From a virus (lineage: Duplodnaviria; Caudoviricetes): 64,000 nucleotides of DNA. Each line of letters opens with the position of its first letter. Within the stretch, counting starts at the first letter, position 1. Location: positions 41,963-105,962 of the IMG/VR virus record IMGVR_UViG_2711768162_000009, one strand, 5' to 3'. Both the position numbers and the translations under genes were made by a program. Shown piece by piece: positions 17,555 to 39,810 of the stretch. The notes below the pieces were generated by a model, which did no database searches, was not told where the DNA came from, and saw nothing but the letters and a program-made list of their open reading frames with translations.

Positions 17555-17904
17555 CGCGGGCAGATCAGGACGAGAAGCCGAGCGTCGTGAGCATCGACCT
17601 CGGCTACTTCATATCCCGCGTCATGCGCTTCTACTCAATGAACTACCGGGACGTCCTTGATCTGCCCCTGAAGGCGTTCTGGATGCTCGACCGAAATATC
17701 TCCCGCATCAAGGCCGAAGACGACCTGCGCCAAGTTCGTCTCAGCGCACTTGCCAGCTCCGGCAGCAAGGAAGCGCTCGAGAACTTCATGACCGAACTCA
17801 GCGATGAGATCGGCAAGCCGATCCAGCAGGACCAGTCAGCCATGGAGCCTGGCGCCATGGATCGTCTCAAGTCGCTTATGGGAGCACCGAATGGACAGAG
17901 ATGA
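17545..17904 (+). CDS. Tail assembly chaperone frameshift extension (gpGT-like, -1 frame)
   Basis: The -1 frame is open from the slippery heptamer 17545-17551 into ORF 17587..17904. Confidence 0.75.
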   Translation, partial: KKVTRADQDEKPSVVSIDLGYFISRVMRFYSMNYRDVLDLPLKAFWMLDRNISRIKAEDDLRQVRLSALASSGSKEALENFMTELSDEIGKPIQQDQSAMEPGAMDRLKSLMGAPNGQR

Positions 17905-20900: not shown

Positions 20901-21103
20901 GCCGGACTATCCCCGTCACCATGCAGGGAGGCCAGCAGGCGCCAAACATCATGTTCAATGTCGTCAACCAATCAGGGCAGGACGTCGAGGCCCAGCAGCA
21001 AGGGGGCCGATTCGATGGCGAAACCTACGTGCTGGATGTGGTGCTCAAGGCCGCCAACCGCCCTGGCAACTTCCGTGATGGACTCAAAGGGGCTCTTGCC
21101 TGA
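17891..21103 (+). CDS. Tape measure protein
   Basis: ~1070 aa helical; QQMVGKGVVSMEELRQQLGE tape-measure motif; C-terminal YANGGI...GEGSRPEAYVPL. Confidence 0.95.
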   Translation: MDRDDISVVLTLDDQEFTVGIKNAGALLKQFKGQTQKTAQGVESLDTSIEGLMGKTRDLTVILATAHAALQTVYSATLGWQKAIMDAAGEIERLEVMMRGMSTATTQAERDLEAMAASKFITDFAQNAPFRMEALTDTFVKFKTVGIDPTQGSMKALTDAVAAFGGNSEILHRASIAIQQMVGKGVVSMEELRQQLGEAVPSAMQIMARSMRMSVSELVGAIESGTVESTSAINKMLADMAISFDGAGISMMTTWQGILQSLETRWKLFLKEIAGSTEPGENSFFNTAKGMADELSQWLMSSEAKQAARELSEVFYTMAEAIKTTSIALFENREAIMSVLKVFATWYVLSRATRLVVSLTSSLNNMVTTMGGAKQALQSYRDNMDRARQTLMQFEGQVASATSRKQANAMAARTLATSVGRVGMAFAALAGPIGMAVSALLTVGSILSEIRTDTDELTESILRTNGLLATQGDLDTLRERKKALEGNIARQNELLEGAQNATTGIFGMSEEDKARDIAKARAGLEAQLAEIEQVNAAIETAVEGLSVQASERAASSIQRVMTERTRQISSVFRQTQQEIAEDLKNANGDAGKMQEITERALAANEQALQSKLDLFGDMRQKAQQELQSLASAEDELSARRRAELETELSIISDFEINAREAAERYAEAYTSVNEFVEKPSTSTAKVPQVVKDSQRALAQMSRLVDGFSIKLEQARGKASETNPHLEGLIERIRQLRETIRPEETNAFDQFAQQAIDKAEELYQVEQKTRYEKQGQQALMQVLSRTASSLQDTEEGRLMRMRVQKAELSQQVEKYQELIEKMREFGVEQAEIQQFSDALAQYQTAAMDEIVRENGSAWDQLIADMDNTSQEWVGVWQSGMDQAMDSMVSFVKEGKLNFSDLVDHVLEEILRMQLKQSVTKPLNQLMNTGIQALSTYMGGGAGATSYGGLFGGSLQTTASANGNVMTEFGPAQLNRYANGGIARSPQVSLFGEGSRPEAYVPLPDGRTIPVTMQGGQQAPNIMFNVVNQSGQDVEAQQQGGRFDGETYVLDVVLKAANRPGNFRDGLKGALA

Positions 21104-22123: not shown

Positions 22124-22582
22124 ATGGTTACTTACACTGATCTATTGAACGCACGCTTCCAATACAACGCTCGTGGCGAGAACAACCGCTACGACTGTTA
22201 CGGGCTTTGCATGGAAGTGTCCCGGCGAATGGGCAGAGAGCTACCTGAAATCCTCACACCCCGCGGCTTCCTGAATATGCAGGAGCTGCTGGTAGAGGAA
22301 ACCGAGAACGGTGTCAGGTGGCGGCCAATCCCGCCCTCCGAGGGCGAATGGGGAGTGATCCAGGGTCAGCCAAGGGTTGGCCCTCCCCTCGACTACGGCA
22401 TCAAAGAGGGGGCGATTGCCTACTTCCGCGTCAAGGGTCTCTTGGCGCATGTCGGCATCGTGGTGGCACCCGACACCTTCATTCACGCCTGGGAGCAGAC
22501 TGGGGGCGTGTGCGTCGAGAGATTGACCCTGTGGAAATCCCGTTTGGTGGGCCTGTATGAGCACAAAGCTGATCCCTGTTGA
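22124..22582 (+). CDS. NlpC/P60-family tail tip protein (gpK-like)
   Basis: YDCYGL catalytic Cys; HVGI...FIHA. Confidence 0.85.
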   Translation: MVTYTDLLNARFQYNARGENNRYDCYGLCMEVSRRMGRELPEILTPRGFLNMQELLVEETENGVRWRPIPPSEGEWGVIQGQPRVGPPLDYGIKEGAIAYFRVKGLLAHVGIVVAPDTFIHAWEQTGGVCVERLTLWKSRLVGLYEHKADPC

Positions 22583-25500
22583 GGCGATCGAGGAAGAGAA
22601 GTTCGTCAACCTCCTGGTCGTCTACAACGCCCTGAACATGACGGATCGCCAAGAGGCGAAGCTGTCGTATCAACGTGGCAAAAGCCTCGAGCAGTTTCTT
22701 GAAGGGCTGCCTGAGCCTGAGCTTTGGTCGATCTGCGTCAACGCCGAACCCTATGCCCCGGATGAGTGGCGTTCGGTCTACCCGCAGCCCAACGACTACA
22801 TCACTGTCATCCCCATTCCCTACGGGGGCGGCGACAGCAAAGGCGTCCTTCGTATCGTCGCAATGGTAGCGATCGCCATTGTGGCTCCCTACGCGGGCGG
22901 AGCTATGGCTGCTGCTATGGGCGGCACGGCGACCGGAGCCCTGGCAACCGGTCTGACGGCAGCCTTTACCGTTGTGGGCGGTATGTTGGTCAACTCCATC
23001 CTCCCGCCGCCTACCGCGTCGTCCAACAACAAGACCGACCTGGCCGAGTCGTCCACCTACGGCATCGACGGCGCCAAGAATACCCAAACCGAAGACACCA
23101 TCGTTCCGCTGATCTATGGCGAATATCGCTACTTCGGTAACTACGTGAACGTGAAGAGCGAGAATCGGGGCAACACCCAGATGATCTACGCTCAGTCCGT
23201 GGTGTCAGAAGGCCCCATCGAGTCGATCACTGACTTTCAGATCGAAGAGCAGCCAGCCTCCAACTACGATGACGTCAGCACCGTCGTTCGACTGGGAGAC
23301 AGCACCCAAGCCCCCACCGGCTGGTTTGCCTCTACTGTTGAGATGCAGAACAAGGGCATCACCCTCTCCACCAACTGGACCGAGCACACCACTGTTGGCG
23401 AGATCGACGGCTTCCGGATGGACTACGTGCTCCCGCAAGGTCTGAGCAACATTGATGACAAGGATGGCGATCGCGAGCATCGCTCGGTCACCATCGAGAT
23501 CCAATACCGCAAAGAAGGTGAATCGACCTGGAAGAGCGTCTTTCCCTCGCAATACCGGGAATTCACTGGCAGTCGGCTACCCGCTGGCTCCACCGCCCTT
23601 CGCGTCGAATACAGCCAGAACTTCCGTGGCACTACCCCACGCAAGATCACCGGCAAGCTGTATGTGCGCGTTGCCGGCGGCTCGTGGCAGCTCAAGGAGA
23701 CCATTTCCCGCACCCTGCCCATGTCTAGCGGCTATGGGCATCTTGGGGGCGTGTCCTATGTCGCCCTCTCCGACACCAGCACCTGGGACTACAAAATTGA
23801 GTGGTCAGGCGCGAGCCCAACGGTCACAGCATCCGCTCGCTACCAGTTGAGCCCGACTATCCGTGAGCGAACCAGTCAGCCCCTTCGCCGCTCCTTCGAG
23901 TCAGGCGTGCTGCCAGAAGGTCGCTACTTGATCCGAACCCGCCGGACCAACAACGAGGCAAAGTCTGACTACGCCTACGACAAGGTGGTGCTGTCCGATG
24001 TGGCGGAGATCATCAGCGAGCGCGTTCGGTATAACTACACGGCGTTCTTCGGAGTGCGGGTCAAGCTGACCGACCAGCTTTCCAACCTCCCGAAGATGAG
24101 TGCCAAGATCAAGGGCATCAAGGTGCCTCACTACGACGTGGCCGGCCGCCTGGTGAAGCGCGCATGGTCAGCCAATCCGGCCTGGATCACTGCCGACCTT
24201 CTGACGAACACCCGCTATGGCGCTGGGCTGCCGGCCTCTCGCCTGGACATGCCAAAGTTCGTGGAGTGGGCCGCGTTCTGTGATCAGAAGAAGTATTACT
24301 TCAACGGGGTGCTCGACACGTTCTCCAACGTCTGGGATGCCTGCCAGAAAGTGCTTCGCGTCGGTCACGCCCGCTTCACTTCGATTGGCAACATCCTGAG
24401 TTTGGCGATCTACAAGCCCGCTCAACCGATGATGATGTTTGGCACCGGCAACATCCTCGAAGGGTCGCTGTCGCTGAGCTGGCAGTCCATTGAGGACCGA
24501 TCCAACGAGTTCGAGATTGAGTTCTACGACCGCGAGAACGCCAACAAGCAAAGCACCGTGCGGGTAGCCGACGAAGAGGCTTTGGCGCGTGGTGAGGTCC
24601 AGCGAATCTCCACCACCCGAATGATCGGTATCGACAACCAGAAGCAGGCGCTTCACGAGGCCCACTTCCAGAAGGCGCTGAACCAGGCACTCGTCATGTC
24701 GGGTAAGTTCGATGCAAGTATCGAGTCGATTGCCTGTGGCGTTGGTGACGTAGTGCTGCTTCAGCACGACATGCCTGAGTGGGGTGAGTCTGGTCGTCTG
24801 CGTCCTGGGTCCACCCGCTCCGAGGTCATCGTGGATAGGCCGCTGACTATCGCGAGCGAACCAGAGGCTCATTCGCTCATGGTGATCCACCCGGCCATCA
24901 AGCGCGCCGAGGGCACGGTAGGCTCGGTAAACGGGTCCACCATCTTCATCAGTGCCGGCGGCACGAGCCACAAGTTCAAGCGAGTGAAGGTGGCCGGCAA
25001 AGACATTCGCGTCATCGACGCCTCTCCGTCTGGAGCCTATATCGAGACGGTCCTCGAGACGACCGCCGGCATCTCAAGCGGCGATACGATAGAGCTGTGG
25101 GACGTCAACGTGATCGAATCGCGTCGCATCAGCGCCTACGATTCCGACGCCAGCACGGTGACGCTCGCCGGTCCTCTGTCTGTCGATCCCATGGATTTCG
25201 CCAACTACATGATCGGCATCACCGATGCTGAGGCGAAGCCCGTGACCATCACCGGCATCAACGGCTCCGGTGACTACAAGCGAACCATCAGCTTCGTGGA
25301 ATACAACGAGACAATCTTCACCCCGGAGAACGTCGAAGAAACACCCATCTACACCAAGCCGGTGACAGGTGTTCAGCACGTTCGCGACCTGCTCGTGAGA
25401 GAAGAGCTGACCATCCGAGGCGGTGGGATCGAAACCGACATCCTGGTGGCCTGGACGCCTCCGGCAGATGGTAACTACGCCGGTGCACACGTCTACCTGT

Positions 25501-27008
25501 CACGCAACAACTCCAGCATGGTCAAGGTCGGTTCGGCATTTGCAGGAGCCACCAGCTATACCACAACGGGCCGTATCGGAGATGACCTCACGTTCAAGGT
25601 TGTCGCCTACGACGGCGCAGGGCGCAGTGCCAACTTCGATACCGCTCCGACCTGGATGCATCTCGTCGAGGGCGCATCGGCACCGCCCAAGCAAGTGACC
25701 AACTTCAAGGTCGAGAAGGGCCTTGGCGGCATCGAGTTTACCTGGGACCGCTCGACCGAAATCGACGTCACCGGATTCGAGATTCGCGAGGGCGTCAGTT
25801 GGGGTGCGGGCGTCGCGATTGTCGAGGACTACTCGGGCAACCGCTTCTTTACCACCAAGAAGCAAGGCGGTCTCTACACCTACCACATCAAGGCCACGGA
25901 CGCCCTGGGCAACCAATCCGACGAGGCGGCAACCGCAGTGCTGATGCTGCCGGCTCCCTCTATCGTCGTCGGGTTCGCGTCGGTGCAGAACGGCGATCAG
26001 CTTGTCCTTCAGTGGCGCAAGAACCCTGAGATCGACGTGGTGGGCTATGAAGTTCGTCAGGGGTCGAGCTGGGCCAACTCGAAGCACGTCGCCTATGTGT
26101 CCGGCACGTCCCTGACGATTCCTGCCGGCGCCTCGGCTACCGAGTCGTATCTGATCAAGGCATATGACTCCGCAGGGGTGGAATCGGTCGCCGCGGCTCG
26201 CGTGGATCAGGCGGTATTCAGGAGCCAGACCTACAACGCCATCTTCTCGCTGGACGCTACCGATCTGGACTACCCCGGCCACTACATCAATCTGACTCAG
26301 GTAGGAGGCCGCCTGGAAGGTGCAGGCTCAGGCGAATTCTTCGAATACCTCCAGCCCATCGAGATGCCTAAGCGCTTCAATGCGACGCTGACCACTCAAG
26401 AGATCGTCGCAATCAAGTCCACGGCATCCCGCACCTGGAAAGACATGAACTTCCCCTGGTTCTCGTCCCAGGCCAAGACCCCCTGGTTTCCAACCGAGGA
26501 AAGTGACGATCTGGTGCTGGATAAGCAATTGACGCTTTACACCGGCCCGAGCGCGATCGACCAGTGTGCGTGGACCCTGGAGGACGCAAGCTCATCCCCG
26601 GCCTACGGAACTGGCTCTCTAACAGCCAGCAACGTGTCTCAGAGCGTCGGTCGCTTCGGATATGGGCAACGAGTCACTTCAGGCTCTTCCGTCCTCGAGG
26701 CGAGCGTTCAGGGCGAAATTGCATCGTGGTGGGTGAAGTATGAAGCTGGTGACGAGCTGGGCCGACTGGTGGGTGAGTCAGGAAGTGCCACCATCCGAGT
26801 TACTGACGGCGCCCTGCGTCTCGAGTCAGGCCAAACTGCTCTTCAACCGACAGAACTGACACTGAAGGCCGGCCATCACTACTTCGTCGTCGGCGCGGTC
26901 GTGGGAGGCCGAGTCAAGGCGTTCGTGGCCTGCCTTGAGACCGAAGTGACTGTTGAAGTGGTGCTGGAGCAGGACATTGGCGCCTTGAGCGCTGTAAAAC
27001 TTGCCTGA
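22557..27008 (+). CDS. Central tail tip / host-specificity protein (gpI+gpJ-like fusion)
   Basis: 1483 aa; VPLIYGE, VSEGPI, WSANPAW...RYGAG, FnIII-like repeats. Confidence 0.9.
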   Translation: MSTKLIPVEAIEEEKFVNLLVVYNALNMTDRQEAKLSYQRGKSLEQFLEGLPEPELWSICVNAEPYAPDEWRSVYPQPNDYITVIPIPYGGGDSKGVLRIVAMVAIAIVAPYAGGAMAAAMGGTATGALATGLTAAFTVVGGMLVNSILPPPTASSNNKTDLAESSTYGIDGAKNTQTEDTIVPLIYGEYRYFGNYVNVKSENRGNTQMIYAQSVVSEGPIESITDFQIEEQPASNYDDVSTVVRLGDSTQAPTGWFASTVEMQNKGITLSTNWTEHTTVGEIDGFRMDYVLPQGLSNIDDKDGDREHRSVTIEIQYRKEGESTWKSVFPSQYREFTGSRLPAGSTALRVEYSQNFRGTTPRKITGKLYVRVAGGSWQLKETISRTLPMSSGYGHLGGVSYVALSDTSTWDYKIEWSGASPTVTASARYQLSPTIRERTSQPLRRSFESGVLPEGRYLIRTRRTNNEAKSDYAYDKVVLSDVAEIISERVRYNYTAFFGVRVKLTDQLSNLPKMSAKIKGIKVPHYDVAGRLVKRAWSANPAWITADLLTNTRYGAGLPASRLDMPKFVEWAAFCDQKKYYFNGVLDTFSNVWDACQKVLRVGHARFTSIGNILSLAIYKPAQPMMMFGTGNILEGSLSLSWQSIEDRSNEFEIEFYDRENANKQSTVRVADEEALARGEVQRISTTRMIGIDNQKQALHEAHFQKALNQALVMSGKFDASIESIACGVGDVVLLQHDMPEWGESGRLRPGSTRSEVIVDRPLTIASEPEAHSLMVIHPAIKRAEGTVGSVNGSTIFISAGGTSHKFKRVKVAGKDIRVIDASPSGAYIETVLETTAGISSGDTIELWDVNVIESRRISAYDSDASTVTLAGPLSVDPMDFANYMIGITDAEAKPVTITGINGSGDYKRTISFVEYNETIFTPENVEETPIYTKPVTGVQHVRDLLVREELTIRGGGIETDILVAWTPPADGNYAGAHVYLSRNNSSMVKVGSAFAGATSYTTTGRIGDDLTFKVVAYDGAGRSANFDTAPTWMHLVEGASAPPKQVTNFKVEKGLGGIEFTWDRSTEIDVTGFEIREGVSWGAGVAIVEDYSGNRFFTTKKQGGLYTYHIKATDALGNQSDEAATAVLMLPAPSIVVGFASVQNGDQLVLQWRKNPEIDVVGYEVRQGSSWANSKHVAYVSGTSLTIPAGASATESYLIKAYDSAGVESVAAARVDQAVFRSQTYNAIFSLDATDLDYPGHYINLTQVGGRLEGAGSGEFFEYLQPIEMPKRFNATLTTQEIVAIKSTASRTWKDMNFPWFSSQAKTPWFPTEESDDLVLDKQLTLYTGPSAIDQCAWTLEDASSSPAYGTGSLTASNVSQSVGRFGYGQRVTSGSSVLEASVQGEIASWWVKYEAGDELGRLVGESGSATIRVTDGALRLESGQTALQPTELTLKAGHHYFVVGAVVGGRVKAFVACLETEVTVEVVLEQDIGALSAVKLA

Positions 27009-27041: not shown

Positions 27042-27503
27042 ATGAACCTGACAGGAGTGATTTCGGACCTGAAGGTCATGACCGGAAGCGCTTTGCCAAG
27101 CTCGAACGCTCTTCAAAACATGTTCGAGTCAAGCGCACCGCCGGGGTATGACGGGTTTCGGCCCTACATCCCCGGCTACTACGACTTCCAGAAAGCCATT
27201 TTCCGCCACGCCGTCCGGGCCAAGACAGGAACGCCAATTCTGTCTGGCCTGGAATTCACAGCTGATATGCCGGATGTGGTGGACAGAGGCCAGGCAAGCG
27301 TAGAAGCCGGTCAGCTCAAGCAGGTCTATTTCGGCAAGCGATTCACCGTCCCGCCAGAGATCGGTCACACCGTCATCGCTGCAAACGAGTATTGCACCGT
27401 GCGTCTGAACGAGATCAATGAAACGGGATTCATCTTCCACATGGTCAATGCCGCCAACGAGAAGGTTGCCGGCACGATCTCTTGGAGCGCTACAGGTTAC
27501 TAG
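27042..27503 (+). CDS. Tail tip accessory protein
   Basis: D+PD..DRG...F...P...ISWSATGY pattern of fibre-anchor domains. Confidence 0.6.
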   Translation: MNLTGVISDLKVMTGSALPSSNALQNMFESSAPPGYDGFRPYIPGYYDFQKAIFRHAVRAKTGTPILSGLEFTADMPDVVDRGQASVEAGQLKQVYFGKRFTVPPEIGHTVIAANEYCTVRLNEINETGFIFHMVNAANEKVAGTISWSATGY

Positions 27504-27506: not shown

Positions 27507-28379
27507 ATGCAAAGATATACGGACATTGATGAAAACACGGAGGTCGAGGACAGCCGCCAGCTTCTGCTGGACAACGACATGACCTCGATTACCAACAACT
27601 CGGGCGTCTCGTTTCCTGCCTACGCAGAGGCCGGGACGGCGTGCTATCGACTCGACCACGACCGGCTCTACATCAAGCGGGTCAACGGCGAGTGGCGAAT
27701 GATTGCAGACGCTGCGCAAACAGCTCTGACGCGGGAGGAAGCTGACCAGCGCTACTCCGACATTAACCACAACCACGATACGGCCTACGCTCCACGCCAG
27801 AGCCCGAATCGACCTGGCATCACGAAGCTGTATCGCAGTGACGCCGACTCCGGCTACAACGTCCAAACGACCTGGACCGGCACCTACTGGAAGCTCTACG
27901 GCTACAACGGCGACTCGGCACATGCCGGGTGCTTGGTCGACCGGGCTAACTCCGCCAGTTCCGCCGACAACGCCTCGAAGCTGAACGGCCTGTCTGCTGG
28001 CAACTACCTGCGCAGTAACACCAACTCGACCTTCACTGCCTCGCTGACGGTCAACGGCAACTTGACGGTCAAGAGCAGCCTGACGGTTTCTCGCGACATC
28101 ACCTCATCCTCGGATGCCCGCCTTAAGCGGGACATTGCCACCCTCGAGGACGCCACGCAGAAAGTGAAACAGCTCCGTGGCGTCAGCTACGTGATGAAAA
28201 GCTCAGGCGAGAAAGGCATTGGCTTCGTCGCCCAGGAGCTTCAAAAGGTAGTCCCCGACGTGGTGCGCATCGGTGAAGACAAAAAGCTCTCCGTTGCCTA
28301 CGGCAACATCACTGCCCTGCTGACCGAGGCGTTGAAAGACGTCATTTCGCGTATCGAGAAGCTGGAGGCTGCGGCATGA
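27507..28379 (+). CDS. Tail fibre with C-terminal intramolecular chaperone (peptidase S74)
   Basis: SSDARLKRDI...LRGVSY...IGFVAQELQKVVPDVV...LLTEALK. Confidence 0.9.
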   Translation: MQRYTDIDENTEVEDSRQLLLDNDMTSITNNSGVSFPAYAEAGTACYRLDHDRLYIKRVNGEWRMIADAAQTALTREEADQRYSDINHNHDTAYAPRQSPNRPGITKLYRSDADSGYNVQTTWTGTYWKLYGYNGDSAHAGCLVDRANSASSADNASKLNGLSAGNYLRSNTNSTFTASLTVNGNLTVKSSLTVSRDITSSSDARLKRDIATLEDATQKVKQLRGVSYVMKSSGEKGIGFVAQELQKVVPDVVRIGEDKKLSVAYGNITALLTEALKDVISRIEKLEAAA

Positions 28380-28627
28380 GCTACAAGATCGGCGGCACGA
28401 CCGTCATCGACAACAACGGCGAGATCGACTGGGGCCGCCTCAAAAACATCAAGGCGGTGATGGGGTCTTCGAGCAACTACACCAAGACCCATAACTGTGG
28501 TGACAAGCTGACAAGCATTAGCGGTCCCAAGCTGGAGCGAACCGGCAACAACCTTCGCATTCGCTACGACAGGTATTACGGCGACTGCAATTGCAACTGT
28601 AACTGCAACTGCCTGTGCCGAGACTGA
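28376..28627 (+). CDS. Cys/Asn-repeat small protein; candidate fibre-tip protein and radical SAM substrate
   Basis: 83 aa, ATGA overlap with fibre gene, ends DCNCNCNCNCLCRD. Confidence 0.8.
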   Translation: MSYKIGGTTVIDNNGEIDWGRLKNIKAVMGSSSNYTKTHNCGDKLTSISGPKLERTGNNLRIRYDRYYGDCNCNCNCNCLCRD

Positions 28628-28635
28628 GGTGACGC

Positions 28636-29559
28636 ATGAAGATCGGATTCTACGGTCCCTACCCGACCAATCACTACCTGCTTCACCTCCACATCGAAGG
28701 CTCTCGGCTCTACGCCGGCATCCTCTACCCTGCTGACTTCTTGACCGATGAGCCCGACACGCGGATGGCCTACGCCGACTACCTAACGTGGTTCAAGAAT
28801 GCGGAAGTGGACTACAGCTACGCCGGCTACCCCAACAACTTCACCAATGGCGTCTTCGTTCGTGGTGTCGCCAATCAGCCGGCAGAGCGGTGGTTCGAAA
28901 TCAAGGGCAAGATCGCCTTCGATATGCAGTATGCCGCTGGCGAGGATGAGTTCTGCGACTTCTCGATCATCGACCTGAACATCAAGAACGACGGCACCTT
29001 CTACGGCATCCAGAACCGCTTCTCGCGGACTCGTGGCGACAAGGTGCTGAAGTCGCATCGTGCACGGGCGGCCATCGACGTCAGCACCGTTCTGACGGTC
29101 GTCTTCCCCTTCTGTGCGCAGTCGTTCGAGGATGCGGAGTTGATCATCGTGCCCTACGGCGAGGGCTTTGAGCCCATTGGGGTTGAACCCGACTTCCGAG
29201 TCAGTGCCAAGCCGCCAGGCGAACGCCTGATACGCGATCTCTACTCGCCAAAGTTCGAAACTCCGGTGGTCCAGGTAAAGCCTGACGACATGGTTCAGAT
29301 CCCCTTCAGCACCACTTGGAATGGCGGCAGCGAGTATCCGCACGAGGAAGGCGAGCCGATTGACCGAGCCATCACTTACGAGGTCGAGCCGACCTCCGGC
29401 TACGTCGGTATCCGGCGAGTCACCACGGATGATCAGGGCAACGGCGTGATTCGGTTCAGAGCGCTCGACATGCTGCCCGGCGAGAAGGCCAAGGTGAAAT
29501 TGAATCTCGGCCATTTCTCCGCGCTGGGCGCTGTCGAGATCGAGGTGGTCGATGCTTAA
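28636..29559 (+). CDS. Hypothetical protein, paralogue 1 (MKIGFYGPYP family; beta-rich C-terminus)
   Basis: GAGG RBS; colinear with 32517..33437. Confidence 0.8.
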   Translation: MKIGFYGPYPTNHYLLHLHIEGSRLYAGILYPADFLTDEPDTRMAYADYLTWFKNAEVDYSYAGYPNNFTNGVFVRGVANQPAERWFEIKGKIAFDMQYAAGEDEFCDFSIIDLNIKNDGTFYGIQNRFSRTRGDKVLKSHRARAAIDVSTVLTVVFPFCAQSFEDAELIIVPYGEGFEPIGVEPDFRVSAKPPGERLIRDLYSPKFETPVVQVKPDDMVQIPFSTTWNGGSEYPHEEGEPIDRAITYEVEPTSGYVGIRRVTTDDQGNGVIRFRALDMLPGEKAKVKLNLGHFSALGAVEIEVVDA

Positions 29560-30550
29560 CGTCTTCCTTGGCTACGCCTGCAACTTCAACTGCGGCTATT
29601 GCCTTCAGGAGCCAGAACACGAGCGGGGGCCTAATCGGGCTCCCCGCCTGGATGCATTCTTCGAGAAGGTCATTCCAGAGATCAAGCGCCAGGGCATTCG
29701 CGAGATCGCCTACTGGGGCGGCGAGCCGCTGGTCTACTGGAACGCCATCATGGAAATCCACGAGCGACTGCTCGACGAAGGCATCAGGTTTGACCTGGTG
29801 AAGTTCGTCACCAACGGGAGTCTGCTCAAGGAGCATCACGTCAAAGTGCTCAATGCCTGGGGCGCCTACGTGGTCGTGTCCATGCACGAAGGCTTCGGTG
29901 AACCCAACTGGGACATGGTGGCTCAGCTCCATAAATCGAGCCTGTCGTTCCTGTTTCGCAAGGATCGCCTGAGCCCAATGGAGTGGCTTGAGCGCGTCGA
30001 AGAACTCGAGGCCCACTACCAGCGACCATTCTTCCCCTACATGCACTGGATTCGCTCAACGGACGGTGCGGCGGAGAAATGGTGGCTCGGCCACGAAGAC
30101 CTTGATGAACACGTCGCAGAGCTATGGGAGCTGGCCCGGATGCGCATTGAGGGGCATCGCCTGGCACATGGTCTATGGGAGGCTCACCTTCAAGACTGGC
30201 GCAGCAAGATGCGACCGGGCCGCGAAGCCGTCCCGATGTGCTTCGGCAAGCATCAGATCGACATTGACCTAGACGGCAATCTCTACGGCTGCCACCACAC
30301 CGTCAACGACTCGATGAAGGTCGGCACCCTGGCAGAAGGCGCCAAGGATATTGTGGTGATGAGCCGCATCCGTCGCTTCGTGGACACCAAAGAGTGTATG
30401 GCCTGCCCGATCAAGACCTGGTGCCGGGGCAACTGCCACCTCTCCAACACCCACGACGTTGACTGCCGGCTGTCCAAAGAGAAGCACCGCATTCTCCAAT
30501 GGATCGACGCCAACGAGCGCGGCATCGACGCTATTGCCATCGACGTTTGA
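29552..30550 (+). CDS. Radical SAM / SPASM domain protein 1
   Basis: CNFNCGYC, WGGEPL, VTNGSLL; SPASM C...DGNLYGC...CMAC...CRGNC...C. Confidence 0.92.
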   Translation: MLNVFLGYACNFNCGYCLQEPEHERGPNRAPRLDAFFEKVIPEIKRQGIREIAYWGGEPLVYWNAIMEIHERLLDEGIRFDLVKFVTNGSLLKEHHVKVLNAWGAYVVVSMHEGFGEPNWDMVAQLHKSSLSFLFRKDRLSPMEWLERVEELEAHYQRPFFPYMHWIRSTDGAAEKWWLGHEDLDEHVAELWELARMRIEGHRLAHGLWEAHLQDWRSKMRPGREAVPMCFGKHQIDIDLDGNLYGCHHTVNDSMKVGTLAEGAKDIVVMSRIRRFVDTKECMACPIKTWCRGNCHLSNTHDVDCRLSKEKHRILQWIDANERGIDAIAIDV

Positions 30551-30579
30551 CCAACTTAATCAGTAAGGACTGACTGACC

Positions 30580-31869
30580 ATGTTTACGATTACCCTGCGC
30601 CGTCAGAATGGCGAGGAATTCCAGCTCCAATATGATCACCGTGCCAATCGCCTGCTGACGATGGAGGGCCTAGACGCCCTGCCGTTCTATCACGAGAAGC
30701 GGGAGTGGTCAGTCGCCCGGTCCTTTAGTCCCGACAACCCCGTTGGTAAGACCGGCAAGGTCAAGAATCTCAAGATTCAGCTCGGCCTGAAGTGCAACTA
30801 CTCATGCGCCTACTGCAACCAGGCGGTTCATGTTGGCAGCGAGGTTCACACCAATCTCGATGACGTGCATGAGTTCATGGCTGGGCTCGATAGCTGGATG
30901 GAGACAGCGCCCCAGCGTATCGAGCTGTGGGGTGGCGAGCCGCTGGTCTACTGGAAGAAGCTCAAGGTGCTGATTCCGGCGTTGCACGAGCGCTTCCCGC
31001 AGGCGCAGTTCGTGATGATCACCAACGGCTCTCTACTGGACGACGAGAAGTTCGCCTTCATCGAGCGATACGATATGGCGATCGCCATGTCCCATGACGG
31101 CCCCGGCCAGCATTTGCGAGGCCCTGACCCGTTCGAACAGCCCGAGACCGTCCGGATCGTTCGGCGCTTCATCGAAGAGCGCCCCCACCGCTTCTCGATA
31201 AACAGCGTAATCACCAAAGCCAACACCGACATCAATGCCATCGTCGACTGGTTCCGTGAGCGCGTTCACCCCGACGCTCCCGTTAACTTCGAAGGGGTCG
31301 TCAATCACTACGACGAAGCCGGTGTAGGGTTCACGGAGCGCTTCACTGAGCGCGATTACGAGAAACTGGTGTCATCACTCAAGGAGAATCTGAAAGACGC
31401 TGAGAAGCGCTCCCAGGGGCTAGAAGCGCGTGTTTACGACTTCATCGAATCCATCATGGAAGCTCGCCCACACACGTCGCTGGGTCAGAAGTGCGGAATG
31501 GACAGCGAAGACCGGCTGGCGGTCGATCTGAAGGGCAACGTCATGACCTGCCAGAACACGGGAGCAACCTCGGAGCACGGCATTGGCTCCGTCTTCGACA
31601 TGGATAACGTGAAGCTGACCACCTCCTGGCACTGGATGGAGCGGCCCGACTGTGAGGGCTGTCCCTACCTTCAGCTTTGTGCCGGCGGCTGCATGTTCCT
31701 CGAGGACAAGAACTGGGTCGATACCTGCAACAACGAGTATCACTACGCCAAGGGTATCTTTGAGGGTGCCTTGCGAATGCTGACCGGCGCTGACGTCGTT
31801 GCCTTCGAGGGCCATCACACTCGGCCCAAGGCCCCTTCCGACAACCTGATTCCGGTGATGGCGGTATGA
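30580..31869 (+). CDS. Radical SAM / SPASM domain protein 2
   Basis: CNYSCAYC, WGGEPL, ITNGSLL, SHDG; SPASM KCG...GNVMTC...CEGC...CAGGC...C. Confidence 0.92.
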   Translation: MFTITLRRQNGEEFQLQYDHRANRLLTMEGLDALPFYHEKREWSVARSFSPDNPVGKTGKVKNLKIQLGLKCNYSCAYCNQAVHVGSEVHTNLDDVHEFMAGLDSWMETAPQRIELWGGEPLVYWKKLKVLIPALHERFPQAQFVMITNGSLLDDEKFAFIERYDMAIAMSHDGPGQHLRGPDPFEQPETVRIVRRFIEERPHRFSINSVITKANTDINAIVDWFRERVHPDAPVNFEGVVNHYDEAGVGFTERFTERDYEKLVSSLKENLKDAEKRSQGLEARVYDFIESIMEARPHTSLGQKCGMDSEDRLAVDLKGNVMTCQNTGATSEHGIGSVFDMDNVKLTTSWHWMERPDCEGCPYLQLCAGGCMFLEDKNWVDTCNNEYHYAKGIFEGALRMLTGADVVAFEGHHTRPKAPSDNLIPVMAV

Positions 31870-32459
31870 GCGAATTTACAGGCTTCAATGGGCTTATCGG
31901 CATCTACGACATAGACGATTTCACCGCGACGGAATGGGAGACGGTGGTTGGCCTATGCAACAAGATGGCCCAAAGCGAGGGAGTGGCGCAGCAGCTCACC
32001 GCCGGCAACACTCGAGCCGACGTCATTGGCGACACGCCGGAGCTGCAACGCATCTCAAGCGCTCTCGAAGAGGCCATCGGTCATTACCTGGTGGCGAACT
32101 TTCCCGTCGTGCTGCATCCCGACACCGAACTCGATCTCGCTCGGGTCGGCTCCTGGTTCAGCGTCTACAGGAAGGGTGAAAGTCAGGCGACGCACACCCA
32201 TGACGCCGACCTGTCTGCGCTGATCTACTTCGACACGGTAGAGGAAGACCACGGCGGCCTGACAATCTTCACTAACCCGGTAAACCCGCACCTGCCGGTA
32301 GGCTCTGGGTTGATGCAAAAAGGACTGCGGGTCCATCTCCCTGTCGAGGCGGTGAAGGGCCGAATCGTAGTGTTCCCGAGCTATCTCGAGCACGGCTGCT
32401 CAACCTATGAAGGACCAGGGCTGAGACGAGTCCTGGCTGCCGACTTCACGGCTCAATAG
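31866..32459 (+). CDS. Putative Fe(II)/2OG oxygenase (TIGR02466-like)
   Basis: SW...HTH...LSALIY...GG...F.NP...VVFPSYLEH...RRVLA double-stranded beta-helix pattern. Confidence 0.8.
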   Translation: MSEFTGFNGLIGIYDIDDFTATEWETVVGLCNKMAQSEGVAQQLTAGNTRADVIGDTPELQRISSALEEAIGHYLVANFPVVLHPDTELDLARVGSWFSVYRKGESQATHTHDADLSALIYFDTVEEDHGGLTIFTNPVNPHLPVGSGLMQKGLRVHLPVEAVKGRIVVFPSYLEHGCSTYEGPGLRRVLAADFTAQ

Positions 32460-32516
32460 GTAAGTCACTGGTTACTTATCTGATATACTGGCCCAACCGC
32501 AACAGGAGGCTCTGAC

Positions 32517-33437
32517 ATGAAAGTTGGCTTTTACGGCCCCTACCCCATACAGGCGCAACAAGTGCATCTCTACATCGAGGAATCCCGCATCTACGTGGGC
32601 ATCTTGGCGCCGTTCACCTCGAAGCACTACAAGCCCGAGCACTTCATGACCTACCCGGAATATCTGGAGTGGTTCAAGACTGTCGAGGCTGAGCACGAAT
32701 ACGCCGGATACCCGAACAACAACTACAACCACTACATCGTGACAGGCGTTCCCGGCCACGACCCGGAAGCGCGCTTTCTCATCCTTGGAAAGCTGGGCTT
32801 CGATCTGCGCTACGCCGCTGGCGAGGATGAAGTGACCGACTTCACCATCCTCGACGTCAATATCTACAACGACCGAACGCTGGCCGGTATCCAGAACCGC
32901 TTTGCGAACACCCGCAATGAGAAGGCCATCAAGTCCCATCGCGTCCGTGCGCTGGATAACGTCAGCACCGTTGCGACCATCGTTTTCCCCTACAAGTCAG
33001 ACACCTTCGAGGATGCCGAGCTGGTAGTGGTGCCCTACAACGAGACCGGGCGACCTCTGGGAATGGAGCCGGACGTGTGGTTCGACGCCAAGCCGCCAGG
33101 CGAACGGCTGATCGCGGACATGTATTCGCCCAAGTTCGTTCAGCCGGTGGTCGAGGCCAAAGCCGGTGAGCTGGTCAGGATTCCCTTCAGCACCACCTGG
33201 AATGGCGGTGACGAATACGATCACGCCGAAGGTGAGCCTTTGTCTCGCGCTGTGACCTACAAGGTGGAGGCCACTGCGGGCTATGTGCCAAAGCGTCGGA
33301 TCGTCACTGACGAGAAAGGTAGCGGCGAGATCCTGTTCCGGGCCACCGACCTAGAGCCAGGCGACGAAGCCAAGGTGAAGCTGAACATCGGCCACTTCAC
33401 CGGCATCAGCCACGTCACCGTGAAGATCACTGAGTAA
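32517..33437 (+). CDS. Hypothetical protein, paralogue 2 (MKVGFYGPYP family)
   Basis: AGGAGG RBS; shares YAAGEDE, GIQNRF, AKPPGERLI, IPFSTTWNGG and AKVKLN with 28636..29559. Confidence 0.8.
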   Translation: MKVGFYGPYPIQAQQVHLYIEESRIYVGILAPFTSKHYKPEHFMTYPEYLEWFKTVEAEHEYAGYPNNNYNHYIVTGVPGHDPEARFLILGKLGFDLRYAAGEDEVTDFTILDVNIYNDRTLAGIQNRFANTRNEKAIKSHRVRALDNVSTVATIVFPYKSDTFEDAELVVVPYNETGRPLGMEPDVWFDAKPPGERLIADMYSPKFVQPVVEAKAGELVRIPFSTTWNGGDEYDHAEGEPLSRAVTYKVEATAGYVPKRRIVTDEKGSGEILFRATDLEPGDEAKVKLNIGHFTGISHVTVKITE

Positions 33438-33480
33438 CCCCAGGGCACCCTAGCGGTGCCCTCTTCTCTTCGAGACTCCC

Positions 33481-34215
33481 ATGAACATCAAGTCCCACAC
33501 CCAGATTCAGACCATCTTCCCCTCCTTCGTGATGCACAAGCGCTGGGAGATGCCGCCGGGGTTTAACGAGCGACTGCACGAACTCGCGTGCGAAGACGCC
33601 ATCAGGAACCGGATCACGAAAGCAGACAACCCCACCAATATCGGTGACACCTCGAATCACCTCGGGCACCTTCGTCACAACTTCCTGGTCGAGTGCCAGG
33701 AGCCTGAAGTGAAGACTCTGACCCAGATGGCTGACCTGGCCGTGAGGGAGTATCTGGCCTCGGTTTACGGCTATCAGCACGAAGGCGAGGTTCGCATGAT
33801 GAGCGACACCTTTTGGCAGCGCCGAAGTCATGGCGAAAACGTCGGCATCAACAGTCACACCCACATCAAGGCTGATCTGGTGGTGACCTACTACCCTCGC
33901 GTAGACGTGGAGCCGGGGGAAACTAGCTCGCTACGCAAGGGAGCATGTCGCTTCTACGACCCGGCCAACGTCGGCAAGCGCTTCTGGCCCTGCAACAACG
34001 ACGCCTTCTTCGTCGGAGGCTGGTATCAGTTGGAGCCGCAGGAGGGCTCAATGACAGTGTTCGAGGGCTACGTCCCTCACGACAGCACGTTCTTCTCCGG
34101 TGAAGAGCGAATGTGCATCCCGATCCTCGTGGACGTCGATACACCCAAGAAGCACTGCAAAGCTGCGGTGAGCGACATTCTCGGCTACAAGCCCTGGGAG
34201 AAAGGCCATGAGTGA
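33481..34215 (+). CDS. Putative Fe(II)/2OG oxygenase (TIGR02466-like)
   Basis: HTH...LVVTYY...RFYDP...PQEGSMTVFEGYVPH...ERMCI. Confidence 0.75.
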   Translation: MNIKSHTQIQTIFPSFVMHKRWEMPPGFNERLHELACEDAIRNRITKADNPTNIGDTSNHLGHLRHNFLVECQEPEVKTLTQMADLAVREYLASVYGYQHEGEVRMMSDTFWQRRSHGENVGINSHTHIKADLVVTYYPRVDVEPGETSSLRKGACRFYDPANVGKRFWPCNNDAFFVGGWYQLEPQEGSMTVFEGYVPHDSTFFSGEERMCIPILVDVDTPKKHCKAAVSDILGYKPWEKGHE

Positions 34216-34825
34216 GCTGCCAGGTTTCAGTGATCTAGTGATGGCCGTTCAGATTCGCGACTTCACAGAAGCCGAATGGAGTGCGTTAGAGCACATCGCA
34301 GAGAGCCACACCAGGCAGGTCTCGCGACGCAACGACCCAAAGAGCCCTGGTGCGGAGCCGCTTACCACCGCGGATTACGACGACCTTATCGGTAGTATTC
34401 CTGCACTAGAGCGCATCGGAAAGGCACTTGATGAGGTGGCGGAGCTGTATCTCTCCACTCAGCACCCTGGGGCGCCGGTCCTTGGCTATGGGCTGAAGCG
34501 AACCGGCTCTTGGATGAGCGTCTACAAGACCGGCCAGGCACGCGAAACCCATACTCACGACTCGGACGTCAGCGTGGTGTTGTTTGTCGATGACGTGCCC
34601 GAAGAGGACGGCGGAGTGCTGGGCTTTCTCAACCCCACGAATCGCCATGTGATCGGCGGCACAGGGCTACTTCAGACGACGTTCCGAAAGCAATTCACCC
34701 TTACGCCGCAGAGGTGCGTCGCCGTTGCCTTCCCAGGCTACCTCGAGCACTTCGCCACCGAATACCAGGGACTAGACACCCGCCGGATCATCGCTGCTGA
34801 TTTTGCTGCATTTGATAGTAAGTAA
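34208..34825 (+). CDS. Putative Fe(II)/2OG oxygenase, paralogue of 31866..32459
   Basis: GSWMSVY...THTHDSD...FPGYLEH...RRIIAADF. Confidence 0.8.
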   Translation: MSELPGFSDLVMAVQIRDFTEAEWSALEHIAESHTRQVSRRNDPKSPGAEPLTTADYDDLIGSIPALERIGKALDEVAELYLSTQHPGAPVLGYGLKRTGSWMSVYKTGQARETHTHDSDVSVVLFVDDVPEEDGGVLGFLNPTNRHVIGGTGLLQTTFRKQFTLTPQRCVAVAFPGYLEHFATEYQGLDTRRIIAADFAAFDSK

Positions 34826-34883: not shown

Positions 34884-35231
34884 GTGAACGAGCACATCTC
34901 CGTTCCGCAGCCCGATCACTCACCCGCCGCCGGCGCTCTCGAGCAAACGTCGGTCAATTGGGCAGACAAAAGCCTCTGGGTAGTGGTTGGGCTGATCCTC
35001 CTGGGCCACATGGCCCGCAATCTCGTCTCCGACGAGCCGTTCAACCTCAAGAAGTTCATTGGCGAGATGCTGCTGGCCGGCATCGGCGCTGTCGTCATCT
35101 ACCTCTTCGGCATTCTTCAGGGCTTGCCGGAGATTCAAATCATCCTGATCGGAAGTCTGACCAGTCTTGGCGGCATTCGCGCGCTCGAATGGGCCGCAAA
35201 GATTTACCGCCTTTCCAAGAAACTGCACTAA
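34884..35231 (+). CDS. Holin (3 TM, probable)
   Basis: Three hydrophobic segments, basic C-terminus, directly upstream of endolysin. Confidence 0.75.
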   Translation: MNEHISVPQPDHSPAAGALEQTSVNWADKSLWVVVGLILLGHMARNLVSDEPFNLKKFIGEMLLAGIGAVVIYLFGILQGLPEIQIILIGSLTSLGGIRALEWAAKIYRLSKKLH

Positions 35232-35241
35232 GGAGGCTGCA

Positions 35242-35715
35242 ATGAGCTTTGCACCCAACTTCCCCCAGCATGAGTTCGAGGCGTCCCAGACCGCAGCTCG
35301 CAAGGGCATCGACAACTCGCTCCCGGCTGACAAGCTGGATGACATGGTGAAGGTGTCCTGGTGGCTTCAGGAGCTTCGCAACAAGATCAACCGCATCCAC
35401 CGCACCGAGTCTCGCGCCCGCGAGCTGCCGGTGATCATCACCAGCGGATACCGCTGCCCCGAGCTGAACACTGCCATCGGCGGCTCCAGCACCTCTCAGC
35501 ACATGCGCGCTCAAGCCGTGGACATTCATGTCCCCGGCATGACCGCTCGCCAACTTGTCGATTTCATCGCCGAGCACATGACCGGATACGACCAGATGAT
35601 CGAAGAGTTTGGTCGCTGGGTGCATGTAAGCGTGTGCGACAGCCCTCGCGGTGAAGTGCTGGTGGCTCGCAAGTCTGGCAAGGGCGTGCGCTACGCACCT
35701 CTGAAAGCGGACTGA
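35242..35715 (+). CDS. Endolysin, peptidase M15 family
   Basis: ITSGYRCPELN..IGG...SQH...AVDI...WVHVS. Confidence 0.9.
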   Translation: MSFAPNFPQHEFEASQTAARKGIDNSLPADKLDDMVKVSWWLQELRNKINRIHRTESRARELPVIITSGYRCPELNTAIGGSSTSQHMRAQAVDIHVPGMTARQLVDFIAEHMTGYDQMIEEFGRWVHVSVCDSPRGEVLVARKSGKGVRYAPLKAD

Positions 35716-36357: not shown

Positions 36358-37650
36358 ATGAGCAACATCATTCAGATCAAGCGTTCGCACACCACGAACG
36401 CTCCGGCCAACCTGGGTGACGGCGAACTGGCCATGTCCCATCTGTCCCGCATCCTGTATGTGGGCGATGGCAGCAGTGTTCGTGCGATCGGTGGCGAAGG
36501 TGCCTTCATCCGTAAGGGTGGCGACACCATTACCGGCGACCTCGTGATTCAGGGCAACCTGGTGGTCAAAGGTGCTCAGTCCACCGTCGAGTCCAACACC
36601 GTCGCAATCGGCGATGCCGTCATTGAGCTGAACCAGGACATTGCCGCTGACGCTACACCCTCCGAGAACGCCGGCTTCGCCATCAAGCGTGGTGCTGAGG
36701 CGGACGTGTTCTGGATTTGGGACGAAGCCAACGACGTCTTCACCGGCAAGGTGGGTGACGCTCCTGCCTCAATCGCGGGCATGGAAAACATCGCGCTGTC
36801 TGGCACGCTGAGCGCGTTTGACGCCGCGTTGGATACCACGCTCAACGTCGGCACCGATCTCACCGTAGGCGGCAACTCCGTCGTGTCTGGCACAGGTCGC
36901 TACAACGGCCGTCTGACCACCACCGCCGGCATCACCAACACCGGGGCTTCGAGCTTCAACGGCACCTTCACCCAGACCGGCGGCGTGTTCAGCACTCGCG
37001 GTATCCGTGATGGGGCTACCACCAAGCAGATCGACGTCACCAACTCGCTGACTCAGGTGAACAATGACGTCAACGTGTCTGGTGCGATCACTGTCGGGGA
37101 AGAGTTCTCGTTCCTGTCGGGCGGTTCTGTCGCTGGAGCGGCCACCTTCGAGTCCACCGTTGACGTGATGAACCTGCGTCTGGACGGCAACACCGTCAGC
37201 TCCACCAACGACAACGGTGACATTTCGCTGACCCCGAACGGCACTGGCCGGGTCATCGTCGGCAACCTGGACGCCAACGGCGGCACCATCGACGGCACCG
37301 TGATTGGCGCAGCCTCCCCGGCCGCCATCACCGGCACCAAGATCACCGCTACCGACATCTTCGCCACTCGCGGTATCACCGATAACGCCACCGCGAAGAA
37401 GCTGGTGATCAACGACGCCACCACCACCATCAACAACGACCTGTCTGTTGGTGGCTCCAGCTCCGTGACCGGCGCGCTGTCCGTGGGTGAAGACGTCACC
37501 TTCAGCAAGAGCCTGTCTGTGGGTATGACCCTCTCGGTAGACGCTGCTTCCACCCTCACCGGCCGCGTGACCCTGGGTGAAAACCTCGTCGGTGCCGGCA
37601 CCTCCAGCTCCGCTATCCAGGGCTTCACCATCGACGGCGGCACGTTCTGA
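36358..37650 (+). CDS. Tail fibre protein
   Basis: IIQIKRS...LGDGELA N-terminal anchor; Gly/Thr-rich beta repeats; ends IDGGTF. Confidence 0.8.
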   Translation: MSNIIQIKRSHTTNAPANLGDGELAMSHLSRILYVGDGSSVRAIGGEGAFIRKGGDTITGDLVIQGNLVVKGAQSTVESNTVAIGDAVIELNQDIAADATPSENAGFAIKRGAEADVFWIWDEANDVFTGKVGDAPASIAGMENIALSGTLSAFDAALDTTLNVGTDLTVGGNSVVSGTGRYNGRLTTTAGITNTGASSFNGTFTQTGGVFSTRGIRDGATTKQIDVTNSLTQVNNDVNVSGAITVGEEFSFLSGGSVAGAATFESTVDVMNLRLDGNTVSSTNDNGDISLTPNGTGRVIVGNLDANGGTIDGTVIGAASPAAITGTKITATDIFATRGITDNATAKKLVINDATTTINNDLSVGGSSSVTGALSVGEDVTFSKSLSVGMTLSVDAASTLTGRVTLGENLVGAGTSSSAIQGFTIDGGTF

Positions 37651-37700
37651 TCAATACGGGTTCAAGGGGGCTTCGGCCCCCTACTGCATAGGGTTTACGC

Positions 37701-39809: not shown

Positions 39810-39810
39810 T

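Follow-up and report, generated by a model that had tools for sequence, protein, structure and literature searches.

Introduction

SPASM enzymes of the radical SAM (S-adenosylmethionine) superfamily put thioethers on whole proteins, CrpC acting on CrpA and QhpD on QhpC, according to the accessible part of the report (Dieter 2026, PMC13692751). In this study, we analysed a window of 64,000 nucleotides (the whole stretch of DNA under analysis), which comprises bases 41963-105962 of a 105,962-base IMG/VR provirus record (IMGVR_UViG_2711768162_000009; CheckV completeness 96%). Within its tail module lies a cassette in which the gene for a small fibre-type protein ending in a repeat of alternating cysteines, here called the ladder, is accompanied by genes for two radical-SAM/SPASM enzymes (R and r), three oxygenase-like proteins (O1, O2 and O3), and an accessory protein and its paralogue (A and A'). 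Homologues of R are linked to ladders inside the tail modules of other phages as well, and we suggest, with moderate confidence, that the cassette is a phage-encoded maturation system for a tail-fibre component or tip of the virion, similar to those for peptides that are ribosomally synthesised and modified post-translationally (RiPPs).

QhpD/QhpC and CrpC/CrpA appear to be the nearest analogues of this cassette in logic. The QhpD/QhpC pathway includes an oxygenase step, that of QhpG, which is a likeness to the cassette. In this pathway a small Cys-rich protein receives several Cys thioethers from a SPASM enzyme and is later a structural subunit of a larger assembly (PMC13692751), whereas in the cassette the presumed substrate is a C-terminal repeat ladder on a virion fibre protein, not a subunit of an enzyme, and does not imply a quinone cofactor. 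CrpC of Methanococcus voltae is likewise a SPASM enzyme, which forms ranthionine-type links in a sizeable protein whose C-terminal Cys motifs are repeated and whose N-terminal part is leader-like (Dieter 2026, PMC13692751). Unlike the cassette, CrpC/CrpA is archaeal and cellular, and the repeat of CrpA has 17 residues with C-X-X-Q/D, not C-x-C-x-C (PMC13692751). Neither 'phage' nor 'viral' occurs in the accessible part of this report.

The Asn-x-x-Cys motif of the streptococcal RaS (radical-SAM)-RiPP system NxxcB/NxxcA is contained in each N-C-N-C stretch of the ladder. NxxcB is reported to join the Cys sulfur to the beta-carbon of Asn. However, the Asn of ladders is replaceable by A, D, K, Q, V and others, and the presumed substrate belongs to a fibre instead of being a short peptide under quorum regulation. 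The anaerobic sulfatase-maturating enzyme (anSME) resembles R in being a SPASM radical-SAM enzyme, and its action on a Cys of a folded-protein substrate parallels that proposed for R, whereas the cassette has neither a sulfatase nor a sulfatase motif. PapB/PapA (freyrasin) and CteB/SCIFF provide best or near-best NCBIfam matches of R and r, and full SPASM sets are a further likeness. PapB tolerates varied sequences and is able to join Cys to a C-terminal residue, as stated in the accessible part of the source, which echoes the free C-terminus of the ladders (Eastman 2025). In contrast to these systems, no RiPP recognition element (RRE) is reported by Pfam for R or r, and the ladder substrates lack CX3D/E spacing. 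A literature search, covering few subscription journals, brought up no description of a radical-SAM enzyme that is paired with a phage fibre or modifies a virion fibre. A first-pass annotation of this DNA knew of no characterised system of such a kind.

Layout of the cassette

The tail module is read on the + strand in the order J, a 153-aa protein, S74 fibre, 83-aa protein, A, r, R, O1, A', O2, O3 and lysis genes, with R as the core enzyme of the cassette. The open reading frames (ORFs) of the first-pass annotation all lie where it had placed them, including the ATGA overlap of the fibre and 83-aa ORFs. The features of the cassette are as follows.

27507..28379, + strand: 290-aa tail fibre with N-terminal anchor, shaft and C-terminal S74 autocleaving intramolecular chaperone (PF13884)
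28376..28627, + strand: 83-aa fibre-type protein, presumed substrate (ATGA overlap with the fibre gene; family search)
28586..28618, + strand: Cys ladder CNCNCNCNCLC, residues 71-81 of the 83-aa protein (read from the sequence)
28636..29559, + strand: A, 307-aa accessory protein with predicted beta-rich N-domain and C-terminal immunoglobulin (Ig)-like domain (AlphaFold2 model)
29552..30550, + strand: r, 332-aa radical SAM/SPASM enzyme without N-terminal domain (PF04055, TIGR04085)
30580..31869, + strand: R, 429-aa radical SAM/SPASM enzyme with N-terminal extension of ~60 aa (PF04055, TIGR04085, phrog_1802)
31866..32459, + strand: O1, 197-aa 2-oxoglutarate (2OG)-Fe(II) oxygenase-like protein (PF13759, phrog_81, HTH...H motif)
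32517..33437, + strand: A', 306-aa paralogue of A (56% identity to A; same jackhmmer family)
33481..34215, + strand: O2, 244-aa oxygenase-like protein of a type common in these cassettes (PF13759 just under cut-off)
34208..34825, + strand: O3, 205-aa 2OG-Fe(II) oxygenase-like protein (PF13759, phrog_81)

Linkage of the ladder and R

With 20 aligned R homologues as the starting point, we fetched 79 genome loci and 80 viral loci and scanned all six frames for ladders of at least four alternating cysteines, (C-x)>=3-C. Matches were found in 116 of 162 sources, almost always on the strand of R and upstream of it. Collapsing the R proteins at 90% identity gave 100 clusters, and the 83 loci with >4 kb upstream were kept; redundant loci (R >=90% identical) and loci with <=4 kb upstream were left out. 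By the strict regular expression, 63 of these 83 non-redundant loci have a same-strand ladder ORF <=5 kb upstream of R, and the motif density over six frames was 74 ORFs in 260,670 aa of the upstream zone versus 10 in 1,479,421 aa elsewhere, a ~42-fold enrichment. A looser reading by eye found the ladder in 71/83 loci; among the 20 strict misses, eight hold a shorter, interrupted or more distant upstream ladder and twelve hold none. Only the strict counts, and not those by eye, come with a matched background control. Metagenome contigs served as a replication set of 43 new clusters, 25 with enough flank, after removal of loci >=90% identical to the first set. Here the ladder was present in 14/25 loci by the strict scan and 23/25 by eye, with 15 motif ORFs in 71,854 aa near R versus 6 in 365,184 aa elsewhere. 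The association of the ladder with R exceeds chance.

The pairing, in varying gene order, occurs in siphoviruses and myoviruses as well as in alpha- and betaproteobacterial prophages, and is spread across unrelated phages. For example, Achromobacter phage JWF, a siphovirus, encodes J, a 157-aa protein, a 483-aa fibre, a 240-aa protein and a homologue 40% identical to R, and its fibre holds NCNCDCNCNCSC with a Hint-type block immediately after it. Ralstonia phage RSP15, a myovirus of the Ackermannviridae, encodes a 'side tail fibre' ending NCQCGN, a 271-aa protein that by eye resembles A, a 288-aa protein and a homologue with 37% identity to R. Such persistence in phages of different types with variable gene order is not what one would predict if the radical-SAM enzymes and oxygenases were auxiliary or anti-defence genes that are merely parked in the fibre region and act on nucleotides or host targets, a case of syntenic hitch-hiking that we consider very improbable. 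It is true that fibre regions are hot spots for accessory genes, that PHROGs call the oxygenases morons, and that the radical-SAM core gives partial matches to the viperin family (NF038283, 50.1 and 40.5 bits), but these matches cover the shared core only and lie below the cut-off of 180. To our knowledge, viperins have no SPASM domain.

The commonest gene order is ladder-A-O-R (15 loci), and in five other non-redundant loci, of the order ladder-A-r-R, r fills the oxygenase slot. The gene order of the window, ladder-A-r-R-O-A'-O-O, was found in no other of the 83 loci; it combines a second radical-SAM enzyme, three oxygenases and a duplicated A with a single ladder in the record. At the other end, 9/83 loci represent a minimal form with ladder and R and no A, O or r by the family models, a count to be read with the limit that these models miss other enzyme families, as in a Bradyrhizobium prophage (L032) with unmodelled accessory genes between and after ladder and R.

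Some R homologues of 41-44% identity, in a Variovorax beijingensis contig (L026) and in L023, L027 and L029, have no ladder, A or oxygenase nearby. A branch of the R enzyme family may act in a non-phage setting.

The ladder and its carriers

The ladder ends <=5 residues from the stop codon in 64/74 cases and 6-12 residues from it in 4, and in the remaining 6/6 it is followed by a Hint-type CF..GT block; after the long Cys-Lys ladders comes an S74 cleavage motif. Because the ladder ends at a stop codon, a Hint block or an S74 cleavage motif, it is predicted to be nearly always the mature C-terminus of the fibre protein. The Cys is the invariant residue, and the position between cysteines is mostly Asn but also D, A, Q, K, R, V or Y.

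With regard to the carriers, 8/10 long ladder proteins match PHROG tail-fibre families, which identifies ladder carriers as fibre proteins by sequence. Several long ladder-bearing fibres of other loci begin with an N-terminal anchor similar, by eye, to that of the 290-aa fibre of the window. This 290-aa fibre belongs to Peptidase_S74 (PF13884; residues 202-254, 59.3 bits versus a cut-off of 22) and matches 35 PHROG tail-fibre families (best 6.8e-31), and its N-terminus is homologous to the JWF fibre gp028 (E 4e-11). Small ladder proteins come after S74-type fibres in the window, L013 and L032. The window represents a split form, where anchor and shaft end in the S74 chaperone and the ladder is on a separate small protein.

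The C-terminal end of this 83-aa protein is DCNCNCNCNCLCRD, in which the ladder CNCNCNCNCLC stops two residues short of the C-terminus. Since its codons are mixed, TGC/TGT and AAT/AAC, the ladder is not a pure DNA microsatellite. In the entire 105,962-base provirus record the ladder is the sole match to TGYAAYTGYAAYTGYAAYTGY (two overlapping hits), and a control pattern had no match in the same record. The protein also carries an N-terminal motif of docking type, MSYKIGGTTVIDNNGEIDW, for which the docking role is our proposal. A jackhmmer search with the whole protein retrieved 74 ORFs in 56/162 sources, and one with residues 1-68, which exclude the ladder, retrieved 50 ORFs in 36 sources, most of which begin MAYKVGTTIVIDDSG.VDW. 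As judged from these searches, the 83-aa protein belongs to a real family of small proteins that are encoded behind S74-type fibres and share a conserved N-terminal motif. Together with the PHROG matches of the long ladder proteins, this supports the earlier proposal that the substrate would be a fibre-type protein. An ESM Atlas look-up with the 83-aa protein gave low-score leads only, and the ladder family matched nothing below E 0.3 among PDB sequences. In four viral contigs (L091, L094, L095 and L103), small proteins with an N-terminal MA(Y/F/L)K(V/I)G..T.V motif form tandem arrays, where some members without any Cys ladder stand beside ladder-bearing members.

The small size of the 83-aa protein, its C-terminal Cys-rich core and its radical SAM/SPASM neighbours are as in sactipeptide and ranthipeptide clusters, and it might be taken for a prophage-borne precursor that yields a secreted peptide, a RiPP of the bacteriocin type. 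Such a role is extremely unlikely. As had been claimed before, no exporter, leader protease or immunity gene accompanies the operon: none of these families was found among the 20 window proteins scanned against Pfam. Moreover, in other phages this ladder forms part of full-length tail fibres, and in the window its gene is, by its sequence, translationally coupled to the fibre gene, with the stop TGA of the latter overlapping the ATG of the 83-aa ORF (ATGA) and GGAGG 9 nt 5' of that ATG.

More weight has to be given to the possibility that the ladder is a metal-thiolate or iron-sulfur tip, metallothionein-like, on the three-fold axis of the trimeric fibre, and that the radical-SAM enzymes and oxygenases only aid loading or act elsewhere. 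The fibres of T4 (gp37) and other phages hold axial metal ions via HxH repeats. Cys alone is invariant in the ladders, and C-x-C runs in which K, N, A or S separates the cysteines are typical metal-binding motifs; CrpA, the closest precedent for a protein substrate, is itself a suspected metal binder according to the accessible part of the source (Dieter 2026, PMC13692751). However, a tip that only binds metal has no need of a dedicated SPASM radical-SAM enzyme, and R is the most constant partner of the ladder. We therefore regard a purely metal-binding tip as unlikely, although metal binding and cross-linking are not mutually exclusive and may coexist.

Several variants of the ladder were seen. 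Fibres with >20 CKCKCK... repeats are encoded in four viral contigs (L106, L107, L109 and L114) and four metagenome contigs (L219, L220, L224 and L239); the S74 chaperone cleavage motif directly follows the repeats in 6/8 of these loci, and L114 and L239 end otherwise. The R homologue lies 6-7 kb downstream in these Cys-Lys loci, and the repeat resembles the C-x-C runs of metallothionein. Elsewhere the ladder stands directly before a Hint (intein-like) autoprocessing domain (L001 5929-7380, which is JWF gp028, and L081, L087, L091, L118, L119, L161, L174, L179 and L181). Hint cleavage would leave the ladder at the C-terminus, possibly in the form of a thioester open to capture by a ladder thiol. 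The mean Asn fraction of ladders is 0.62 in the presence of a PF13759-type oxygenase (n=44) versus 0.37 in its absence (n=22; Mann-Whitney p 0.0012, kinship ignored), a comparison on which we do not lean, because the oxygenase model misses families and L032, scored as 'no oxygenase', has two near-threshold Asp/Asn beta-hydroxylase matches.

The radical-SAM enzymes R and r

Both enzymes belong to the radical SAM superfamily (PF04055; r 42.7 bits and R 33.6 bits versus a cut-off of 29.5) and carry a SPASM domain (TIGR04085; r 40.1 bits and R 36.2 bits versus 27). The CxxxCxxC motifs read in the translations are CNFNCGYC and CNYSCAYC, that of r starting at residue 10, and seven SPASM cysteines are readable in both proteins. 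The earlier description of two radical SAM proteins with CxxxCxxC motifs and full SPASM sets is thereby confirmed. In R, C72, C76 and C79 and the SPASM cysteines C305, C324, C358, C361, C367, C371 and C383 are invariant across 20 homologues. R matches phrog_1802 at 1.7e-58, shows 37-41% identity to the phage radical-SAM proteins of JWF, 2-1 and RSP15, and represents a family of 2751 proteins (clusters) at E<=1e-20.

The smaller enzyme r forms a distinct clade, found in 11 other sampled loci at 240-404 bits, whereas R-type proteins score <70 bits. In every locus where both were seen, r is the gene immediately upstream of R. Besides 29552-30550 of the window, the r loci are L033, L035-L037, L041, L043, L048, L108, L115, L131 and L157; the window excepted, the sampled r loci are without PF13759-type oxygenases. 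The first-pass annotation had proposed a neighbourhood check on whether homologous radical-SAM pairs sit next to fibre-coupled ladder ORFs. R homologues do so in 63/83 loci by the strict count and 71/83 by eye, but a second radical-SAM enzyme is present in only 7/83 loci, so that pairs are the exception.

The best NCBIfam matches of R and r are all maturases of Cys-containing peptides or proteins, namely PapB, CcpM, nif11-type, QhpD, SCIFF and anSME. Assignment to a named family was nevertheless rejected in each case tried: PapB-family ranthipeptide maturase (NF047865; R 70.3 and r 55 bits versus 340), QhpD (TIGR03906; R 58.7 and r 47.8 bits versus 453), CteB-type SCIFF maturase (TIGR03974; R 56.7 and r 41.5 bits versus 425), anaerobic sulfatase maturase (TIGR03942; r 50.2 and R 39.8 bits versus 349.45, with the C/SxPxR motif absent from the ladder protein) and the radical SAM/SPASM RiPP maturase with a Cys-rich partner (TIGR04463; both 37.6 bits versus 525). 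The closest solved structures to the R family profile, 8VPO, anSME and CteB, are distant, at 6e-17 to 4e-12 (anSME 1.1e-12, CteB 3.9e-12). Because both enzymes lie far below the maturase cut-offs and the closest solved structures are distant, R and r constitute, on sequence criteria, a new SPASM clade. To tell sactisynthases from ranthisynthases, a proximity profile of the catalytic site has been described, with six positions that correspond to F112, F152, T186, S210, H363 and Q364 of CteB (Precord 2023).

These comparisons bear on the idea that R or r converts single cysteines without any acceptor, e.g. to formylglycine as anSME does or to another oxidised or eliminated form, which would give a reactive or rigid tail. 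Conversion of this kind is consistent with an invariant Cys and freely variable neighbours. The GenBank label of the JWF homologue is 'anaerobic sulfatase-maturating enzyme', TIGR03942 is among the matches (50.2 and 39.8 bits), and anSME structures match the R family profile at 1.1e-12. Still, the anSME scores are far under the cut-off of 349, and the sulfatase motif C/SxPxR is absent from the ladder. Asp277 is the catalytic base of anSME. In the profile alignment, the R family has Gln at this position, beside Cys276, which weakens the case for formylglycine in particular. On balance, we think conversion of single cysteines quite unlikely.

Accessory proteins and oxygenases

A has no Pfam, NCBIfam or PHROG family, yet its family is present in 59/83 loci and comprises 791 clusters at E<=1e-10. 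A and A' (307 and 306 aa) share 56% identity, as expected from the earlier description of A' as a paralogue of the then unnamed protein. The AlphaFold2 model of A has a predicted local distance difference test score (pLDDT) of 84.7 and a predicted template modelling score (pTM) of 0.81. Residues 197-307 of the model are Ig-like, with Z ~10 and a root-mean-square deviation (rmsd) of 2.5-2.9 over 92-96 residues against the Big domains of intimin and GH2. The N-domain folded alone gave a best Z of 4.3 (SPP1 gp22, rmsd 4.4 over 97 residues, within noise) and no Foldseek match at E<=1e-3. The A profile gave one chance-level match (E 0.82) among PDB sequences, and an ESM Atlas look-up gave low-score leads only. 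The model of A suggests a structural or adaptor role more than an enzymatic one.

All three oxygenase-like proteins have an HTH (His-Thr-His) motif and a distal His, and two His are 100% and 98% conserved in 74 members of the oxygenase family. This part of the earlier assignment to Fe(II) oxygenases stands for all three, and O1 and O3 also pass the PF13759 cut-off of 27 (35.1 and 32.9 bits), but O2 falls just below it with 25.5 bits. O1 and O3 match phrog_81 (1.1e-19 and 1.8e-13). With phmmer, O1 or O3 as query gave 3 hits in 2 sources each, and O2 gave 40, with relatives in 40 sources. O3 is apparently closest to O1, as similar sequences read by eye suggest. O1 and O2 matched nothing below E 0.3 among PDB sequences. 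The oxygenase family is present in 47/83 loci.

The Bradyrhizobium prophage L032 (7663-8394 and 10283-11769) has no A and no PF13759-type oxygenase. It encodes a 243-aa membrane protein with desaturase-like His boxes and, after R, two paralogues near the threshold of the PF05118 Asp/Asn beta-hydroxylase family (21.3 and 21.9 versus 22.6 bits). Different oxygenase families may be recruited to the same job.

Proposed mechanism

The gene content of the cassette, its domains and the conserved linkage of the ladder and R inside tail modules are established directly. From these we infer the action of R on the ladder, the type of reaction, the roles of r, the oxygenases and A, and where in the virion the product sits. 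In the RiPP-like maturation that we favour, the N-terminal MxYK(V/I)GxTxVID motif of the 83-aa protein would be a docking module and the C-terminal ladder the RiPP core. R would recognise the ladder tail, and a 5'-deoxyadenosyl radical would join Cys sulfur to carbons of neighbouring residues as thioethers, with r adding a second kind or position of link. The oxygenases would hydroxylate or otherwise oxidise ladder residues (Asn/Asp), and A and A' would present the substrate or join it in the tip. The end product would be a compact, reduction-resistant and covalently stapled fibre end.

Thioether cross-linking, or stapling, of the ladder seems the most likely chemistry. It is favoured because QhpD/QhpC and CrpC/CrpA are cases in which such enzymes act on proteins, and because the linking of Cys to a C-terminal residue by PapB fits the free-C-terminus rule. 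Since Asn is replaceable, Asn as such is less likely to be the acceptor than a backbone alpha-carbon or some tolerant position in a side chain. Phages with the ladder-R pairing probably modify their host-binding fibre tips chemically.

Several points weigh against such a maturation system. Its support is genomic association throughout. No ladder was found in 12/83 loci and 2/25 replication loci, and in the ladder-free L026, 0/4 flanking ORFs match a PHROG tail family. R and r come nowhere near the cut-off of any named family of thioether maturases (70.3 bits versus 340 at best), and an RRE/PqqD domain is not reported by Pfam for R, r, A or A'. Whole ladders may be Cys-Lys or Cys-Ala, and the motif also resembles metal-binding C-x-C runs. 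A Cys-to-Asn link cannot be general, because only Cys is invariant in the ladders and Asn is replaceable. Finally, the oxygenase family is absent from 36/83 loci and labelled 'moron, auxiliary metabolic gene' by PHROGs, and it may serve another purpose.

In a variant of the reaction, to which we assign a low but appreciable probability, the links would form between chains. After trimerisation and exposure of the C-terminus by the stop, Hint or S74 cleavage, R, along with r and the oxygenases, would join the three chains of the fibre, and perhaps A, into a covalent, possibly metal-binding knot that would be the distal tip, a radical-SAM 'chainmail' of receptor-binding fibres. The radical-SAM enzyme r and the O2-dependent oxygenases would then be alternatives for one oxidative step under different oxygen regimes, as suggested by r filling the oxygenase slot in the five other ladder-A-r-R loci.

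Tail-fibre tips decide which bacteria a phage can infect. If cross-links made by radical-SAM enzymes, or hydroxylations, are present in these fibres, structure prediction and recombinant expression of such receptor-binding proteins would be wrong or would fail unless the partner enzymes are co-expressed, and RiPP-type chemistry would reach from secreted peptides to virus particles. A function would also be gained for the R clade and for the unnamed A family, with their 2751 and 791 clusters, respectively. The cultured phages JWF and RSP15 allow a direct test of fibre-tip modification.

Genomic context

A DNA search with the whole cassette against phage records gave only three short matches of 72-93 bases, and single-protein scans for near relatives found none in viral contigs and none in metagenome contigs. 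The nearest relatives, found later, are L166 with 70% identity and L167 and L168 with ~55%, on contigs too short to show neighbours. The features on either side of the cassette are as follows.

17804..21103, + strand: tape-measure protein, tail-module context (Pfam scan of window proteins)
22557..27008, + strand: J-type tip attachment protein, tail-module context
27042..27503, + strand: 153-aa conserved protein between the J gene and the fibre (BLASTP E 5e-22 to the 157-aa protein that takes the corresponding place in Achromobacter phage JWF)
34884..35231, + strand: holin-like ORF (weak PF04550 match, E 4.4e-4, below cut-off)
35167..35715, + strand: M15 endolysin (TTG start in the ORF list)

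The 153-aa protein (27042..27503) has no Pfam, NCBIfam or PHROG match. The holin-like ORF and the M15 endolysin ORF, with its TTG start at 35167, share 65 bases; an internal ATG near 35245 is more likely to be the start of the endolysin than this TTG. Beyond the lysis genes, 36358-43607 encodes four further large tail-type proteins of 430, 702, 952 and 321 aa, none of which has a Cys ladder at its C-terminus. The 952-aa protein has three Laminin_G_3 stretches, and the 321-aa fibre carries a second S74 chaperone.

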